Assembly: GCA_003023195.1 (NCBI GenBank)
Contig: PXRX01000043.1
Coordinates: forward strand, 16,643-80,642
Direction of reading: 5' to 3'
Source: Halobacteriales archaeon QS_8_69_26
GTDB taxonomy: Archaea; Halobacteriota; Halobacteria; Halobacteriales; SW-7-71-33
DNA: 64,000 nucleotides
In this document: in pieces, positions 8,918-28,227 of the stretch
Layout of the letters: the number at the start of each line of letters is the position of its first letter
How positions within the stretch are numbered: position 1 is the stretch's first letter
Position numbers and translations under genes: made by a program
The notes under the pieces: generated by a model
Database searches by the model: none
The model's input: the letters and a program-made list of their open reading frames with translations, nothing else
What the model was told of the DNA's origin: nothing

Positions 8918-10090
8918 TCACTCCTCGCCGGACTCGTAGTGCTCGCCGGCGGCGGCGGGCAGGCGGGTCCGACCCACGAGCACGAGTGCGACGATGACGG
9001 TGACGAAGGGGATGGTCTGGACCAGCGACTCGGGGATGTCGTAGGCCGGGAGTTGCTGGAGGCGGATCTGGAGGGCGTCCAGGCCCGCGAACAGGACCGA
9101 GGCCCCGAACGCGCCGAACGGGTTGTAGTTGCCGAACAGGTAGGCGGTGATGGCGATGAACCCCTTCCCGTTGACCATCGTCTGGCCGTTGCCGATGAAC
9201 AGGCCGACGTGCCCCAGCGAGAGGCCGGCCCCGCCGATCCCAGACAACACCCCCGAGAGGAGGACCCCCGCATAGCGCACCCGGTGGACGCTCACGCCCG
9301 CCGTGTCGAGGGCCTTCGGGTTCTCGCCGCTGGCCCGGACCCACCGGCCGAAGGTCGTCCGGTTGAGCAGGTACCACGAGGCGGGAACCGCGACGAGCAA
9401 CATCAGCACCGTCGGCGCGGCCTGGAAGAGGATCGGCCCGACGACCGGGAGCGCCGACAGCCCCGGGACCGTCCAGGTCCCCAGCGTCCCGACGCCGTCG
9501 GAGTTGACCGTCCCGTAGACGACCCGCGAGGCGAACGGCGCCAGCCCCAGCGCGATCAGCCACACCGCCAGTCCGGCGATGATCTGGTCGGCCCGGAACT
9601 CGATGCAGACGACCGCGAAGAGCAGTGCGAGGAGGGTACTCGCCAGCACGGCGGCGAGAAAGCCGATCCAGATGCTCGGCATGGCGATCGCGGGGAGCGG
9701 ACCGATCGCGGGGACCAGCAGCCACCCGGTCCCCGGCCCCAGGAGGTCCGTGACGAGGACCCCCGTGAACGCCGAGATGATCAACAGTCCCTCCAGGCCG
9801 ATGTTGATGACGCCGCTCTTCTCGGCGAAGATGCCGCCCAGCGCCGCGAACCCGATCGGGACCGAGAGCCGCAGGGCCGCGCGGATGGTGCTCTCCCGCG
9901 TCCCGATCCGGACCGCGTCGGCGGTCAGGCCCAGCGTCCACCAGAACGCCCCGCCGACGGCAGAAGAGGGGAGCACTACCCCGACCAGCGCCCACAGGAC
10001 CACCGCCGCGAGGACCGCAAGCCCGGCTATCCGCCGCTTCGTGTCGGCCCAGTCCCCGACCGCCCGCCGGACGTCGGTCGCGCTACTCAT
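8918..10090 (-). CDS. ABC transporter permease (BMP/nucleoside-type, YufQ/NupQ-like)
   Basis: Polytopic membrane ORF (track 8918..10111). I prefer the ATG at 10088-10090 (MSSATDVRRAVGDW...), which overlaps the upstream permease stop by 8 nt. It is the last gene of the ATPase-permease-permease run. Confidence 0.8.
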   Translation of the reverse strand: MSSATDVRRAVGDWADTKRRIAGLAVLAAVVLWALVGVVLPSSAVGGAFWWTLGLTADAVRIGTRESTIRAALRLSVPIGFAALGGIFAEKSGVINIGLEGLLIISAFTGVLVTDLLGPGTGWLLVPAIGPLPAIAMPSIWIGFLAAVLASTLLALLFAVVCIEFRADQIIAGLAVWLIALGLAPFASRVVYGTVNSDGVGTLGTWTVPGLSALPVVGPILFQAAPTVLMLLVAVPASWYLLNRTTFGRWVRASGENPKALDTAGVSVHRVRYAGVLLSGVLSGIGGAGLSLGHVGLFIGNGQTMVNGKGFIAITAYLFGNYNPFGAFGASVLFAGLDALQIRLQQLPAYDIPESLVQTIPFVTVIVALVLVGRTRLPAAAGEHYESGEE

Positions 10091-11594
10091 CGCGGCCACC
10101 CCCCGGGGCACCGCCGTCTGCGGGGTCAGCTCCGTCGCCAGGGTCGGTCCCGTCGCCAGGATCTGTCCCGTCGCCAGGGTCGGTCCCGTCGCCGGGGTCA
10201 GTTCCGTCGCCGGGGTCGGTCCCGTCGCCGGGTCCCGTCGCGTCGAACCCGTTCTCGTCCCCGTCCTCGTCCGCCGTGGCCCCCGGCGACCGGCCGCCGT
10301 CGGTGGCCGCCACGCGGCGGTCCCGGTCCGGGACGACGGTGCGACGGCCGATCATCCGGAAGAACTCGGGCATGGCGACGAAGAGGATCACGAGTCCCCG
10401 GAGCACGCCGACGAGTTGCCGGGGGACCGCGGTCGCGGATTCGATCTGGAGGGAGCCGCTCTTGAGGACGCCGAACAGCAGGGCCGCGAGGCCGGCCCCG
10501 AGCGGGTGGTTGCCCGCGAGGATGGAGACGGTGATGCCGTCGAACCCCAGGGCGGGAACGTCGGTGACGTACCTGCCGTGGACCATCAACACCCAGACGG
10601 CTCCGCCGACCCCGCCCAGTGCCCCCGAGAGAGTCATCGCGGCCACCATCGTCCGCGGGGCGTTCACCCCGCCGTAGGTCGCCGCCTCGGGCTGGATCCC
10701 GCCGGTCCGGAGGTCGAACCCGAACCTCGTGTTCCAGAGCAGGTAGAAGACGCCGACGGCCAGCGCCACCGCCAGTACCAGCGCGACCAGCGAGAAGTCA
10801 CCACCGTCGGGGAACACCACCGGCGAGAGGCGCGCGTTCTCGGGGATCGGCCTCGTCTGGACCGCCTGCCGGTTGGGGTCCTTGAACACCTCGGCGGTGA
10901 GGACGAACGCCACCTTGATCGCGATGAAGTTGAGCATGATGGTGGTGATGACCTCGTTGGCGTCGGCGTACGCCTTCAGCGCCCCCGGGATCGCGCCGTA
11001 GATCCCGCCGACGACCGCCCCGGCGACCAGGGCGACGGGGATCAGCACGAACGACCCCGCCAGGCCCGCCGGGGCGAACGGTTCGATGTAGAGCACGGCG
11101 ACGGCACTGGCGAGTGCGCCGAACACCAACTGCCCCTGGGTGCCGATGTTGAACAGGCCCGCGCGGAACGCCACGACGACCGACAGCCCGGTGAACACCA
11201 GCAGGGTCGTCTCCTTGAAGGTCAGCCCGGTCGCGAAGTTCAGCGGCCCCCACCCGCCGGCGAACGGGTCGCCGAACGCACCCAGGAACAGCCTGGTGTA
11301 GACCTGGATCGGGTCGTAACAGAACCCCACGTCGAACACCACCAGCGCCGCCTCCCGGCAGGTCGCCAGCCACCCGGACACGAGAACGATCACCGCACCG
11401 ACGAGGATGGACAGCACCAGCGCGGCCACGCTGATGAGCAGTCGCTCCAGCGGCGAGGTGGTCGCAAGGCGGTAGAGCCGCCCTCGCCACCCCTCGTCCG
11501 GCGGCCCGGATCCCTCCGGGCTACCACCGTCGGGGGCCGGAGCGGCGTCCGGTCCGTCCCCGGGGTTCGACCCCGGATCGCCCGGGTCGCTCAC
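10083..11594 (-). CDS. ABC transporter permease (BMP/nucleoside-type, YufP/NupP-like) with disordered N- and C-terminal extensions
   Basis: 503-aa ORF. Its GTG start overlaps the ATPase stop (GTGA at 11591-11594). The core is polytopic, and the C-terminal tail carries six GDGTDP-type hexapeptides. Confidence 0.8.
   Translation of the reverse strand: MSDPGDPGSNPGDGPDAAPAPDGGSPEGSGPPDEGWRGRLYRLATTSPLERLLISVAALVLSILVGAVIVLVSGWLATCREAALVVFDVGFCYDPIQVYTRLFLGAFGDPFAGGWGPLNFATGLTFKETTLLVFTGLSVVVAFRAGLFNIGTQGQLVFGALASAVAVLYIEPFAPAGLAGSFVLIPVALVAGAVVGGIYGAIPGALKAYADANEVITTIMLNFIAIKVAFVLTAEVFKDPNRQAVQTRPIPENARLSPVVFPDGGDFSLVALVLAVALAVGVFYLLWNTRFGFDLRTGGIQPEAATYGGVNAPRTMVAAMTLSGALGGVGGAVWVLMVHGRYVTDVPALGFDGITVSILAGNHPLGAGLAALLFGVLKSGSLQIESATAVPRQLVGVLRGLVILFVAMPEFFRMIGRRTVVPDRDRRVAATDGGRSPGATADEDGDENGFDATGPGDGTDPGDGTDPGDGTDPGDGTDPGDGTDPGDGADPADGGAPGGGRDE
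10122..10240. repeat. 18-bp tandem repeat x~6.5 (in-frame hexapeptide GDGTDP repeats)
   Basis: Variants of gggtcggtcccgtcgcca/g occur at 10123, 10141, 10159, 10177, 10195 and 10213. Confidence 0.9.
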
Positions 11595-13387
11595 TCCTCG
11601 TCCCCCCTCCGGGTGGCCCCGGCGTCGGACCCCTCGTCGGGGGTCGGCGTGCCGACGTCTTCACTCTCACCGGCGTCGCCGTCGGACGGTTCTCCCTCGT
11701 CCAGTCTCTCGCTCCCGTCGGATCCGGGTGCGGCGACGGCGTCCTCGTTCGTGGTCGTCCCCACCGGTCCCGGCCCGTCGCTGCCGGCCGGCCCCGTGAC
11801 CTCGGGGGCCCGATCCCCCTCACCGTCACCGGGACCGGGCGACACCGGGACCGTCAGGTCCTCGACCCCGTCGGGTCGCTCCCCGGCCATCAGCAGGCCG
11901 AGTTCCTCCTCGCTCACCGCGTCGGGGTCGACGGTCCCGACGAACTCGCCCTCGTACATCACCGCAAGGCGGTCCGATAGCTGTCGGACCTCGTCGAGTT
12001 TCGAGGAGACGAGCACGACCGCCCGCCCGTCGTCGCGCATCTCCAGCAACTGGCGGTGGATGAACTCGATGGAGCCGATGTCGACGCCCCGCGTGGGGTG
12101 GGAGGCGACGATGAGCGCGGGGTCGCGGCTGAACTCCCGGCCCACGACGAACTTCTGCTGGTTGCCACCGGACAGCGACTCGGCCTCGGCGTCGGGGTCA
12201 CCGGGTCGCACGTCGAAGGTTTCGATGACCGCCTCGGCGTGGTCGCGGCTCCGGTCCCAGTCGATCACGCCGCCGCTGGCGAACGGGGGGGAGTGCTGGC
12301 TCCCGAGGAGGCCGTTCTCGACGAGGTCGAAGTCCATCACCAGGCCCCGCTCCTGTCGGTCCTCGGGGACGTATGCCATCCCGGCGTCGATGCGCTCCCG
12401 GCGGGACGCCCGGGTCACGTCGACCCCGAGGAACCCGACGGTCCCGTCGTCCGGGACGCGCATCCCGGTTATCGCCTCGACGAGTTCGGCCTGGCCGTTC
12501 CCGTCGACGCCGGCGATGCCGAACACCTCGCCCTCGCGCACCGAGAAGTCCACGCCGTCGACCACGTCGACGCCGCGGTGGTCCTCGACGCGGATCCCCT
12601 CGGCCGCGAGGGCGACGTCGCCCGGCCGGGCGGGGTCGGAGTCGACCTCCAGGAGCACCTCCCGGCCGACCATCAGTTCCGCGAGTTCCTCGCGTGTCGT
12701 CTCCGCGGCCGGGACCGTCCCGACTGCCTCCCCGTCCCGAAGGACGGTGATGTCGTCGGCGGCCTCCATCGCCTCGCCCAGTTTGTGGGTGATGAAGACC
12801 ACCGTCTTCCCCTCCGCCGTGAGTTCCTCCAGGACGGCGAACAGGTCCTCCACCTCCTGGGGCGTCAGTACTGCGGTGGGCTCGTCGAGTATCAGCACGT
12901 CCGCGCCCCGGTACAGCGCCTTGAGTATCTCGACTCGCTGCTGGACGCCGACGCTTTCCTCCTCGATGGTGGCGGTCGGGTCGACGTCGAACCCGTAGGC
13001 CTCGGCCAGTTCGCGGACCTCCCTGGTGGCCCGCTCCCGGTCGACCGCCAGGCCGAACCACTTGCTCGGCTCGTTCCCCAGGACGACGTTCTCGGCGACG
13101 GTCATCGGGTCGACCAGCATGAAGTGCTGGTGGATCATCCCGACGCCCGCGTCGATGGCGTCCCGCGGGGTGTCGAACGACCGCTCCTCCCCGTCGACGA
13201 GGATCCGCCCCGCGTCGGGGTCGTAGAGCCCGTAGAGGACGTTCATCAGCGTCGTCTTCCCCGCGCCGTTCTCCCCGAGCAACGCGTGGACCGTGCCCCG
13301 TTCGACCCGGAAGTCCACCGCGTCGTTGGCGACCACGCCCGGGAACCGCTTCGTGATCCCCTCCATAACCACGGCCGGTTCGCTCAT
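11591..13387 (-). CDS. ABC transporter ATP-binding protein, duplicated ATPase (sugar/nucleoside uptake type)
   Basis: 598 aa with two nucleotide-binding domains. Walker A motifs are GENGAGKTT and GVDGNGQ, signature motifs are LSVGVQQRVEI and LSGGNQQK, and a Walker B is ILILDEPT. It also has a ~90-aa P/G/D/E-rich C-terminal tail. Confidence 0.9.
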   Translation of the reverse strand: MSEPAVVMEGITKRFPGVVANDAVDFRVERGTVHALLGENGAGKTTLMNVLYGLYDPDAGRILVDGEERSFDTPRDAIDAGVGMIHQHFMLVDPMTVAENVVLGNEPSKWFGLAVDRERATREVRELAEAYGFDVDPTATIEEESVGVQQRVEILKALYRGADVLILDEPTAVLTPQEVEDLFAVLEELTAEGKTVVFITHKLGEAMEAADDITVLRDGEAVGTVPAAETTREELAELMVGREVLLEVDSDPARPGDVALAAEGIRVEDHRGVDVVDGVDFSVREGEVFGIAGVDGNGQAELVEAITGMRVPDDGTVGFLGVDVTRASRRERIDAGMAYVPEDRQERGLVMDFDLVENGLLGSQHSPPFASGGVIDWDRSRDHAEAVIETFDVRPGDPDAEAESLSGGNQQKFVVGREFSRDPALIVASHPTRGVDIGSIEFIHRQLLEMRDDGRAVVLVSSKLDEVRQLSDRLAVMYEGEFVGTVDPDAVSEEELGLLMAGERPDGVEDLTVPVSPGPGDGEGDRAPEVTGPAGSDGPGPVGTTTNEDAVAAPGSDGSERLDEGEPSDGDAGESEDVGTPTPDEGSDAGATRRGDEE

Positions 13388-26014: not shown

Positions 26015-26065
26015 CTCCTCCAGGGGATATTCCCCGCAAACCGCCGGTGCCCGCCGGTAGGATCC

Positions 26066-26142
26066 GACTTCTGGATCCCACCGGATCGGTACGGTTCGAT
26101 TTCTGGATCCCGCCGGGTTCTTGAAAACTGTTATTAGAACCC
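26066..26142. promoter_or_regulatory. two 19-bp direct repeats plus an AT-rich-loop hairpin immediately upstream of the FHA gene
   Basis: gacttctggatcccaccgg lies at 26066-26084 and gatttctggatcccgccgg at 26098-26116. The stems gggttct (26115-26121) and agaaccc (26136-26142) enclose tgaaaactgttatt, the only AT-rich patch before the start. Confidence 0.4.
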
Positions 26143-26164
26143 GGTGACCATTGTTAGACGATCG

Positions 26165-28066
26165 ATGGCAGGGGACCCCTCTGGGAACGTCTCGACGAAG
26201 TCCTGCCCACACTGCGGTAGCGCCAACAGAGCCGAGGCGAACTTCTGTAAGTCGTGTGGGGAAGTGATAGAGGAAGAGGCCGGGAACGGATCGGACGAAC
26301 CGGACGGGGGGACGGACGTAGAGGAGTGTCCCGGGTGCGGTGCCGACCTCTCTCGCGTACCGCCCGAACGACTGGACGACTGCCCCGTCTGCGGGAGCGA
26401 ACTCCCCGTCGGGTCGGGTGGTGACGACGACGCCGGGGCGTCCGACGACGACCCACCCGCCGACGACGCCGGGGCACAGGAACCGGGAGGGGGTGATCCC
26501 GCGGGGTCGGACGCCTTCGAGGATCCCGATGTCGTCTCCAGCGACGCCGACGACCCCGCCACCGAGGCCTCGGACGACGACGTGAGCGTACCGGAAGCCT
26601 CGGACGACGACGTCGCCGTCCCCGAAGCGTCGGACGACGACCTGTCGGTACCGGACCCCTCCGAGGACGATAGCGACGACGACATCACAGTCCCCGACGA
26701 TCCCCCGATTTCCGACGAACCGGACGGGTTCGAGGACACGGCGATAGTGCCCGGGGATTCCGACGGCGAGGCCGACGACGGCGGTACGGGGTCGTCCGGG
26801 GGGATCGGTGGAACGACCGGGGGGATCGGCGTCGACGAATCGGCAGACGCCGGCCCCGACGACCCGGTCGGGGACGCCGCGACGGGGGGAGCGGGATCCC
26901 CGGTAGAGGACGAGGGACCGACGGACGACGAGGGACCCGCAACGATAGGTTCGCCCGGTGACGGCGGTTCGACGGGGACCTCCTCGGGCGGCGGTTCGAC
27001 GGGTCCCACGTCCGGCGGGTCCACGGGTGACGCACCCGGTGTCGGTTCGACCGGCACCCCGCCCGGCGGCGGGTCCGACACGGGCCCATCGACCGGTGGG
27101 TCCACGTCAGGCGGCGGATCCGGATCGGGTGCAGGATCCACGTCCGGCGGCGGATCCGCGTCGGCTGGCGGATCCGGCGACGAGCGGACCTGTCCCGACT
27201 GTGGGGCCGACCTCTCGCGGATCCCGCCCGACGAACTCACGCTCTGTCCCGTCTGCGGGATCGACCTCCCGGACGAGGAAGCGGAGCCCGAGGAGGAGGA
27301 GCCCGCAGCGGGCGAGATGACCACCGAGGACCTGGAGGAGTGTCCGGACTGCGGGAAGGACCTGACCTCCATCCCGGAGGAGATGCGGTTCGTCTGTCCC
27401 AACTGCCGGGTCGACCTGGAGGAGGCCATCCAGGAGATGTCCGGCGGTGCCGCGGCCGGCGGCGGTGCCGCGACCGGGGGATCCGGCGGCGGGACTGGCG
27501 GATCGGCCGGCGGTACCGGGGGGACGGGCGGCACCCCGGCGTCGGGATCCGACGCCGGCGGTCAGTCCACCGGTCCCGCCTCCCCCGGGTCGGGATCCTC
27601 CGGTTCGGGCCCGTCCGACGGGGCGGACGCGACGCCGGACCCCGCGCCGGCCATCGGTGCCGGCGAGTCCGGGTCGGACGCCGGCGGGCAACCGGGCGAT
27701 GGGGCACCGGACCCCGCACCGGCCATCGGCGACCCGACCGGCAAGGAGGGGCGCGAATCGGTGCCCACCGAGGTCGTCATCCGGGTCGTGGGCCGCGAGA
27801 TCCGTGCCAGCGACGGGGACAAGGTCGGCGGCGAGGTCCGCCAGGCGATGATCGACGGCGGCATGCCCGAACAGAAGTCCCGGTACGTCCACCGGGAGCA
27901 CGTCCGGTTCGACCGCGAGGACGGCGAGTTCTTCGCCACCAAGATCGGGCGGAACACCCTGGAGGTCAACGGCAAGGAAATCGACCAGGGCGAACGGGTC
28001 CGCGTCGTCGACGGCGACGAGATGACCTTCTCGAAACAGATCACCGCGGACGTCCGCCTGGAGTAG
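26165..28066 (+). CDS. multi-zinc-ribbon protein with long disordered linkers and a C-terminal FHA domain
   Basis: ATG at 26165 (the track starts at GTG 26144). There are four CxxC...CxxC ribbons: CPHCGS..CKSCG, CPGCGADLSRVPPERLDDCPVCG, CPDCGADLSRIPPDELTLCPVCG and CPDCGKDLTSIPEEMRFVCPNCR. The C-terminus VVGREI...SRYVHREHVRF...GRNTLEVNGKEI...VVDGDEMTF shows the FHA GR...SxxH...NG pattern. Confidence 0.8.
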   Translation: MAGDPSGNVSTKSCPHCGSANRAEANFCKSCGEVIEEEAGNGSDEPDGGTDVEECPGCGADLSRVPPERLDDCPVCGSELPVGSGGDDDAGASDDDPPADDAGAQEPGGGDPAGSDAFEDPDVVSSDADDPATEASDDDVSVPEASDDDVAVPEASDDDLSVPDPSEDDSDDDITVPDDPPISDEPDGFEDTAIVPGDSDGEADDGGTGSSGGIGGTTGGIGVDESADAGPDDPVGDAATGGAGSPVEDEGPTDDEGPATIGSPGDGGSTGTSSGGGSTGPTSGGSTGDAPGVGSTGTPPGGGSDTGPSTGGSTSGGGSGSGAGSTSGGGSASAGGSGDERTCPDCGADLSRIPPDELTLCPVCGIDLPDEEAEPEEEEPAAGEMTTEDLEECPDCGKDLTSIPEEMRFVCPNCRVDLEEAIQEMSGGAAAGGGAATGGSGGGTGGSAGGTGGTGGTPASGSDAGGQSTGPASPGSGSSGSGPSDGADATPDPAPAIGAGESGSDAGGQPGDGAPDPAPAIGDPTGKEGRESVPTEVVIRVVGREIRASDGDKVGGEVRQAMIDGGMPEQKSRYVHREHVRFDREDGEFFATKIGRNTLEVNGKEIDQGERVRVVDGDEMTFSKQITADVRLE

Positions 28067-28167
28067 GTCCCGGGGACGTCCGTTCGCAGTCGGTTTCGAC
28101 CGTCCGCAAGCAACGGGATCCGGCACCCGTCGCGTCGGACCCGCCCGGATCTGGATCGGTACTGTCT

Positions 28168-28227
28168 CTTCTCATCCCCGATAGCCTCTTCTCATCCCCG
28201 ATAGCCCCTTCTCACCCCCGATACCCC
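28168..28227. repeat. 20-bp tandem repeat x3 between convergent genes
   Basis: cttctcatccccgatagcct is at 28168, cttctcatccccgatagccc at 28188 and cttctcacccccgataccccc at 28208. The array ends 20 nt from the stop of the minus-strand nuclease gene. Confidence 0.9.

Follow-up and report, generated by a model that had tools for sequence, protein, structure and literature searches.

The stretch of DNA analyzed here (64,000 nt from contig PXRX01000043.1 of Halobacteriales archaeon QS_8_69_26, hereafter the window) carries on its plus strand, at positions 26165-28066, a gene for a 633-residue protein that combines four zinc ribbons with a C-terminal FHA domain. The open reading frame can be read from an ATG at 26165 or from a GTG at 26144; the ATG is preferred, given the TTATTA element that is found 29-34 nt upstream of it. 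The G+C content at third codon positions (GC3) was 0.84 for the whole gene, 0.95 for the segment encoding the FHA domain and 0.90 for ribbons 3-4. Together with the recovered homologs, which include an ortholog of the same layout, these values identify the plus frame as the coding frame. Several long reading frames on the opposite strand (e.g. 26134-27534, minus) were discarded as high-GC artefacts, since both GC3 and homology back the plus frame. The gene is a genuine haloarchaeal protein-coding gene, and its product is cytoplasmic, very acidic (pI 4.05 over the whole protein) and mostly disordered.

A preliminary description of the locus had reported the 633-residue frame, the four ribbons, a template shared by three of them, 30-bp repeats and low-complexity linkers, and all of these were recovered in the sequence. 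The ribbons are of the C4 type and are recognized by Pfam as four stretches of DZR (E 1.3e-12), as had been proposed as a check; all 16 cysteines are retained. The first ribbon (26204-26257; C14-x2-C17-x10-C28-x2-C31) matches DZR, Zn_ribbon_3 and DUF7575 and has an inner spacing of 10 residues, whereas ribbons 2-4 have an inner spacing of 14 residues and follow the common template (E/T)CPxCGxDLxxIPxE...CPxC. The latter comprise ribbon 2 (ECPGCGADLSRVPPERLDDCPVC, C55...C76; 26327-26392), a DZR match, ribbon 3 (TCPDCGADLSRIPPDELTLCPVC, C343...C364; 27191-27256), a duplicate of the ribbon-2 type with 74% DNA identity over 85 nt, and ribbon 4 (ECPDCGKDLTSIPEEMRFVCPNC, C393...C414; 27341-27406), a DZR match that aligns with the paralog discussed below (all on the plus strand, like the features that follow). 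The two linkers measure 253 and 111 residues and are rich in G, D, S, P, A and T. Linker 1 (residues 86-338; 26420-27178) is predicted to be disordered; its acidic D/P part gives way to a G/S/T part (24% G, 20% D, 14% S and 10% P overall). Repeat analysis of the DNA located three 30-bp tandem coding repeats, specifying EASDDD(V/L)xVP, at 26564-26653. Linker 2 contains two PDPAPAIG motifs (27635-27658 and 27707-27730) that are shared with the only known ortholog; their twin occurrence in a disordered linker just before the FHA domain may point to a short linear binding motif. A Pfam search with the full-length protein revealed neither a helix-hairpin-helix (HhH) nor a nuclease domain.

The C-terminal domain (residues 535-633; 27767-28063) was delineated using Pfam, AlphaFold2 (AF2), Foldseek and a family alignment. 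When the full-length protein was compared with Pfam, no FHA line appeared at E<=1, probably because of the biased composition of the protein. The isolated 103-residue C-terminus matched PF00498 with 27.1 bits (E 5.5e-6, profile positions 15-66 of 67), which is above the cut-off of 20.7 bits, and a relative encoded at locus L010 (see below) scored 33.5 bits. The AF2 model, built from a family alignment of 33 sequences, had a predicted local distance difference test (pLDDT) score of 93 and a predicted template modeling (TM) score of 0.82. The best 50 Foldseek matches in the PDB were all FHA domains, with a probability of 1.0 and TM scores of 0.6-0.7, and included those of DgcB, GarA/OdhI, Rad53, Rv0020c and PNKP. 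A PDB sequence search with the single domain returned chance matches only; the family profile recovered FHA chains alone down to an E value of ~0.1. Considering the Pfam score, the model, the structural matches and the profile search together, the C-terminus has the FHA fold. The checks by Pfam and structure prediction that had been suggested for this domain thus turned out positively.

An exhaustive search with the C-terminal domain yielded a family of 124 representative clusters, which is patchily distributed among haloarchaea; 7 out of 61 related Halobacteriales genomes carry the domain. The members that were inspected have their ribbons at the N-terminus, linkers that are acidic or rich in G/Q, and the FHA domain at the C-terminus, often with an HhH insert (PF14520). 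One sequence (P0020, 335 aa) is unlike the others, in that its FHA-like domain lies near the N-terminus, and its C-terminal half is hydrophobic and apparently spans the membrane. The genome of the window encodes a second member, a paralog of 332 residues on another contig (C8), and no adaptor copies besides these two. Residues 1-84 and 341-633 of the window protein align with this paralog, so that residues 85-340, comprising linker 1 and the duplicated ribbon, represent an insertion. In the domain tree the window protein groups with a single metagenomic sequence, and this clade (97/96 support) falls inside the subfamily that is encoded by the cassette described below. Judged by its sequence, the window gene appears to be an unlinked, linker-expanded paralog of the cassette-encoded zinc-ribbon/FHA adaptor. 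Two of the nine family loci are unlinked in this way, the other being a copy on the 80-kb contig G037:C3 (region 72130-72426) in which an Mrr-type restriction endonuclease domain (PF04471, E 2e-27) is fused to a zinc ribbon and an FHA-like domain.

The metagenomic sequence in the clade is the sole known ortholog. It originates from another metagenome, resides on a contig of 1.1 kb and is ~51% identical to the window protein. It shares with the window protein the additional ribbon, the G/S/T linker as well as both PDPAPAIG motifs, and the canonical Arg is missing from its FHA domain too. An ortholog with the same layout and motifs is indicative of an orphan lineage that has been maintained, rather than of a fresh or decaying duplicate. 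This bears on the notion that the window gene is a functionless duplicate whose low-complexity parts grew under relaxed selection, for which the long stem branch of the clade (0.42), the loss of pocket residues and the repeat-driven growth of the linkers could be adduced. Given that the frame is intact, that GC3 amounts to 0.90-0.95 in the folded parts, that the six family-invariant FHA residues and the 16 ribbon cysteines have been kept, and that layout and linker motifs recur at ~51% identity, we consider decay highly improbable.

The context in which the family usually occurs became apparent from three loci in metagenome-assembled genomes (MAGs) that were retrieved with a nine-sequence alignment (L010, Haloarculaceae JAZKRS010000027; L011, Halobacteriales CAYYHG010000092; L012, PXQN01000038) and from the paralog locus in the genome of the window (L013, on C8). 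All four show the same gene order: a serine/threonine kinase with an FHA domain (STK-FHA), the zinc-ribbon/FHA adaptor, a vWA protein, a second STK-FHA and a PP2C phosphatase. In the MAG loci the adaptor gene directly precedes the vWA gene, with overlapping stop and start in L010, and the pair is flanked by the two Pkinase+FHA proteins and PP2C, with HEAT-repeat proteins further out. Genome G002 likewise has HEAT-repeat proteins close to the cassette, as do L010-L012, and the one in the extended cassette of L013 (14189-15433, minus) ends in a DUF7575-type zinc ribbon. In all seven domain-bearing genomes a family copy was found within ~4 kb of a vWA gene: the adaptor lies directly upstream of it in G002, G012, G028 and G043, while the order is vWA-STK-PP2C-adaptor in G022 and vWA-STK-x-adaptor in G037, both of them complete genomes. 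The more distant members usually have a kinase, and sometimes PP2C, beside the vWA link. Phylogenetic profiling, as had been proposed for vWA genes, showed that the vWA gene is present in the same 7 of 61 genomes, plus one weak match (Fisher p = 1.8e-8, uncorrected for phylogeny). The genome of the window has one ArnB-type vWA gene and two cassette kinases, and the cassette occurs once, on C8.

The model of the vWA protein consists of a vWA domain, a beta-sandwich and a four-helix bundle. Its best full-length matches in the PDB were 4fx5, ArnB (8S05_A/B, TM 0.70/0.73 over 401 columns) and ArnE/vWA2 (5A8J), with all other matches well behind, and a sequence search gave 8S05_A as top match (E 5e-8). 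Structure 4fx5 has been cited as ArnB-like in the ArnB papers and 8S05 is the co-crystal of the ArnA zinc finger (ZnF) with ArnB (PMC12852372). Both cassette kinases (L013:7791-9170, minus, and 11486-12718, plus) have kept the catalytic Lys and Asp and have DFN for DFG; in one of them YLD takes the place of HRD. Their C-terminal FHA domains are canonical (GR, SxxH-like and (S)xNGT), unlike the HREH variant of the adaptor. The architecture of the vWA protein, with kinases and PP2C beside the adaptor, argues for an ArnA/ArnB-like module that includes dedicated kinases and a phosphatase. From its gene content, the haloarchaeal cassette is the probable counterpart of the ArnA/ArnB module of Sulfolobus and of the bacterial vWA-STPK-FHA-PP2C operons (STPK, serine/threonine protein kinase). 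When the surroundings of the cassette were compared among the distant genomes, no output genes turned out to be conserved; the genes encountered there were unrelated and of the housekeeping type (cytochrome oxidase, an ABC transporter, a hydrolase).

Based on the analogy with this module, we propose, with a probability of roughly 0.6, that the window protein is an accessory or competing adaptor, i.e. an unlinked paralog of the adaptor in the ArnA/ArnB-like cassette, and we infer a physical or functional link between the protein and the cassette on C8. Several observations weigh against this proposal. The contig of the window contains no vWA or kinase gene, in line with the earlier remark that neither a vWA partner nor a Ser/Thr kinase is adjacent, and the window locus and the cassette loci have no neighbors in common. 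The window protein also lacks the motif 'ET(Q/R/K)(I/V)Q' before its FHA domain. Furthermore, the residues with which FHA domains hold phosphothreonine (pThr) have changed. Setting the register by profile alignment to the FHA domain of SLMAP (family positions 28-29 = GR, 49-52 = SRxH), the Arg of GR corresponds to Gly556, the Ser of SxxH to His576 and the Thr before Asn to Arg596. Equivalent R/S/T/N mutations in ST0829 of S. tokodaii abolish the interaction with the kinase (PMC5007285). Across 101 domains of the family, 53% have Arg at the Arg position, and at the Ser position 76% have His as against 21% with Ser, which makes classical pThr reading doubtful for the family as a whole. What had been called a clear FHA phosphothreonine-binding domain thus holds with respect to the fold, but not with respect to the pThr reader. 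Nevertheless, Arg577 (R147 of ArnA), His579, Asn597 and the family-invariant Arg559 have been kept, and all six invariant positions (G28, R32, R50, H52, N70 and G90) are present as G555, R559, R577, H579, N597 and G617. The family would accordingly represent a divergent FHA subtype, judging from these alignments, of which the window copy is more divergent than most.

The motif 'ET(Q/R/K)(I/V)Q' is conserved in cassette-encoded adaptors (L010:8819-10294, L011:1393-2781, L012 ~9000-10294 and sequences P0004-P0019), around 10 residues before the FHA domain, and the vWA proteins of L010-L012 have ETQIR/ETRIR repeats in their C-terminal region. By their sequence, these elements are candidate phospho-acceptor or FHA-ligand motifs.

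For the Sulfolobus proteins it has been described that the ZnF of ArnA binds unphosphorylated ArnB at its beta-sandwich and its C-terminal domain, and that the FHA domain of ArnA binds the phosphorylated helical bundle of ArnB (PMC6509490, PMC12852372). By extension, the cassette-encoded adaptor would most likely change its grip on the vWA protein with the activities of the kinases and PP2C. The ribbons of the window protein could dock on a protein partner, in the way that the ZnF of ArnA docks on ArnB, where it contacts the beta-sandwich and the helical domain. The FHA domain of the window protein might grip a peptide of that partner or of a kinase, and the long S/T-rich linkers would be tethers and perhaps also substrates of a kinase. 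The analogy with ArnA would imply phospho-dependence for the window copy as well; considering that Arg and Ser have been replaced in both the window protein and its ortholog, the binding is probably different, that is, weaker or phospho-independent. With its extra docking ribbons, long tethers and altered pocket, the window copy may be less a duplicate of the cassette-encoded protein than an adaptor with an accessory or competing role.

The altered pocket could also be taken to mean that the protein functions apart from the kinase cassette on C8, as a phospho-independent zinc-ribbon scaffold or as a nucleic-acid-associated regulator with DNA-, RNA- or chromatin-linked targets; its FHA fold would then have turned into a common module for contacts between proteins. 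The replacement of the canonical Arg, Ser and Thr would fit in with this, as would the HhH domain (PF14520) of many family members, the Mrr-type fusion, the unlinked position of the window gene behind an elaborate promoter region of its own, and the fact that SisArnA is a broad transcriptional repressor (PMC10470591). The window protein itself, however, has no HhH or nuclease domain, and the 2026 work on ArnAB, in which the ZnF is protein-binding, offers no evidence of direct DNA binding (PMC12852372). Moreover, the retention of R577, H579 and N597 next to the family-invariant R559 suggests that a site for a charged ligand may persist. We therefore regard a role on nucleic acids or as a phospho-independent scaffold as rather unlikely.

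The likeness of the window protein to ArnA, which had been put forward in the preliminary description, stands for the architecture and for the gene context of the family; a sequence relationship to ArnA itself was not detected. ArnA (Saci_1210 / SisArnA; arCOG05332) likewise has a C4 ribbon at its N-terminus and an FHA domain at its C-terminus, joined by a flexible linker of low complexity (PMC6509490, PMC10470591), and its ribbon (C21/C24/C35/C38; PMC12852372) has the C-x2-C-x10-C-x2-C spacing of ribbon 1. The ArnA and ArnB arCOGs are often paired, and often in an operon (PMC4858521), just as members of the present family occur directly upstream of a vWA gene with the three-domain architecture of ArnB, in a system with Hanks-type kinases. 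On the other hand, the window protein has four ribbons instead of one and linkers of 253 and 111 residues, the ArnA pocket residues R132/S146/T167 correspond to G/H/R in it, the haloarchaeal kinases carry an FHA domain of their own, and the phosphatase is PP2C, whereas PP2A and PTP have been named for Sulfolobus. The window copy has no vWA gene next to it and no link to archaellum genes was seen. The ArnA chains (5A8I and the ArnA chain of 8S05) were absent from the profile matches at E<=1 and from the matches of the paralog at E<=10, and 5A8I was not among the best 50 structural matches of the FHA domain. In the absence of a sequence link and an adjacent vWA gene, and with an unconserved pocket, membership of the ArnA family is unsupported for the window copy. 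Given that family members, including the paralog in the same genome, adjoin an ArnB-type vWA gene, two FHA-kinases and PP2C, the analogy is nevertheless supported at the family level, and by that analogy the idea that the window protein works like ArnA is probably largely right. In the literature searched we found no characterized equivalent module in Halobacteria, in agreement with what had been stated before, although ArnB-like structures have already been mentioned for Halorubrum (PMC12852372).

The cassette also resembles the bacterial vWA-STPK-FHA-PP2C operons, such as DRA0331-DRA0334 of Deinococcus radiodurans, in which the four functions are clustered and FHA domains occur on their own as well as joined to cassette enzymes (bioRxiv 10.64898/2026.01.23.701218); the order vWA-STK-PP2C-adaptor of G022 is an instance of such clustering. 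In the haloarchaea, however, it is the kinases and not PP2C that bear the fused FHA domain, the free FHA protein has several ribbons (often with HhH) and HREH instead of SxxH, and the window gene lies outside the operon. A further point of comparison is provided by the small FHA regulators GarA and OdhI of Actinobacteria, the FHA folds of which were among the best structural matches of the window domain. GarA and OdhI possess a self-binding phospho-motif, which is resembled by the conserved Thr motif N-terminal of the FHA domain in the cassette-encoded members. Unlike GarA and OdhI, the window protein carries zinc ribbons, its pThr pocket is degenerate and the Thr motif is missing.

Most archaeal genomes analyzed lack FHA proteins, and only the ArnA family of Sulfolobales has been studied (PMC6509490). 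The present results point to a compact cassette of the ArnA/ArnB kind, equipped with kinases and a phosphatase of its own, in some of the Halobacteria, which are a group with good genetics. As the pThr-binding Ser has mostly become His and the Arg is often replaced, the ligand that this FHA variant recognizes makes for an attractive biochemical question. The window gene, in turn, could be viewed as a natural experiment in adaptor diversification, in which an adaptor was duplicated, detached and remodeled with extra ribbons and S/T-rich linkers.

In the genome of the window the locus of the paralog (L013, G000:C8:198500-218400) also contains a cluster that is similar to a type VI secretion system (T6SS), with a Tail_P2_I-like protein, CIS13, a sheath protein, two gp19-type tube proteins and DUF6760. 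The cassette comes immediately after CIS13, the sheath, the two tube proteins and DUF6760 in L013 as well as in L010 and L012, in syntenic order. Haloarchaeal contractile injection systems (CISs) act as T6SSs (PMC11566945), and the paralog locus, with an FHA adaptor, a Hanks kinase and PP2C beside a sheath/tube cluster, is in this respect like the Fha1/TagH branch of the T6SS PpkA/PppA pathway. Against this background the window protein might be an accessory FHA regulator of the T6SS-like CIS of this genome, working together with the cassette next to the CIS genes. The weak matches to the TagH model would be consistent with such a role, but the score of the window protein (TIGR03354, 16.7 bits) is far below the cut-off of 120.25, the non-FHA domains differ and the window gene resides on a different contig. 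In addition, sheath and zinc-ribbon/FHA protein were found together only in the window's own genome among the 61 relatives (Fisher p = 1); a sheath gene is absent from the remaining six genomes with a cassette. Considering the above, we deem a Fha1/TagH-like function of the window protein quite unlikely. A general link between cassette and CIS was likewise rejected, as sheath and cassette do not travel together across the 61 relatives; their adjacency may reflect the shared ancestry of one clade. A further possibility, likewise unlikely, is that in some Halobacteria an ArnA/ArnB-type threonine-phosphorylation switch, made up of the zinc-ribbon/FHA adaptor, the vWA protein, the two FHA-kinases and PP2C, gates the T6SS-like CIS. 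The window protein would then be a second adaptor, altered in its pocket, that tunes this switch or competes in it. The T6SS-like cluster does adjoin the cassette in this lineage, and the 2024 paper on the haloarchaeal T6SS makes no mention of a kinase, phosphatase, FHA or vWA component (PMC11566945). If true, such a switch would be an archaeal parallel to bacterial PpkA/PppA/Fha1, made from Arn-like parts.

The region upstream of the window gene contains two direct repeats, CGACTTCTGGATCCCACCGG (26065-26084, plus; ~-100 from the ATG) and CGATTTCTGGATCCCGCCGG (26097-26116, plus), which are 32 bp apart. They had been noted as 19-bp repeats, but extend over 20 nt with 18/20 identities. When the intergenic region was shuffled 300 times, matches did not exceed 15/20, and none (0/300) reached 18/20. 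Further copies were found nowhere in the 3.29-Mb genome, the surroundings of the cassette on C8 included. The hairpin that had been described around the sole TATA-like hexamer is real as well: an inverted repeat at 26112-26145 (plus) with 10-bp arms (26112-26121 and 26136-26145) and a 14-nt loop, TGAAAACTGTTATT, which the hexamer TTATTA (26131-26136) overlaps. Folding of the 116-nt upstream region gave a z-score of -3.0. In haloarchaea the TATA box of a leaderless mRNA is expected 29-34 nt upstream of the start, and the spacing of TTATTA fits a leaderless or near-leaderless transcript. The region of the hairpin and TTATTA may thus function as a promoter, and the tight regulation that had been suggested from the direct repeats and hairpin would be a conjecture at this stage.

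The genes that surround the window gene are of the housekeeping kind and include those for a FAD-linked oxidase/Fe-S protein, a sugar nucleotidyltransferase, a bifunctional nuclease, a cupin, RtcA and PAC2. The window gene converges with the one for the bifunctional nuclease, and the gap between the two holds a 20-bp tandem repeat, CTCTTCTCATCCCCGATAGC, at 28166-28225, with two exact copies and one copy of 85% identity.

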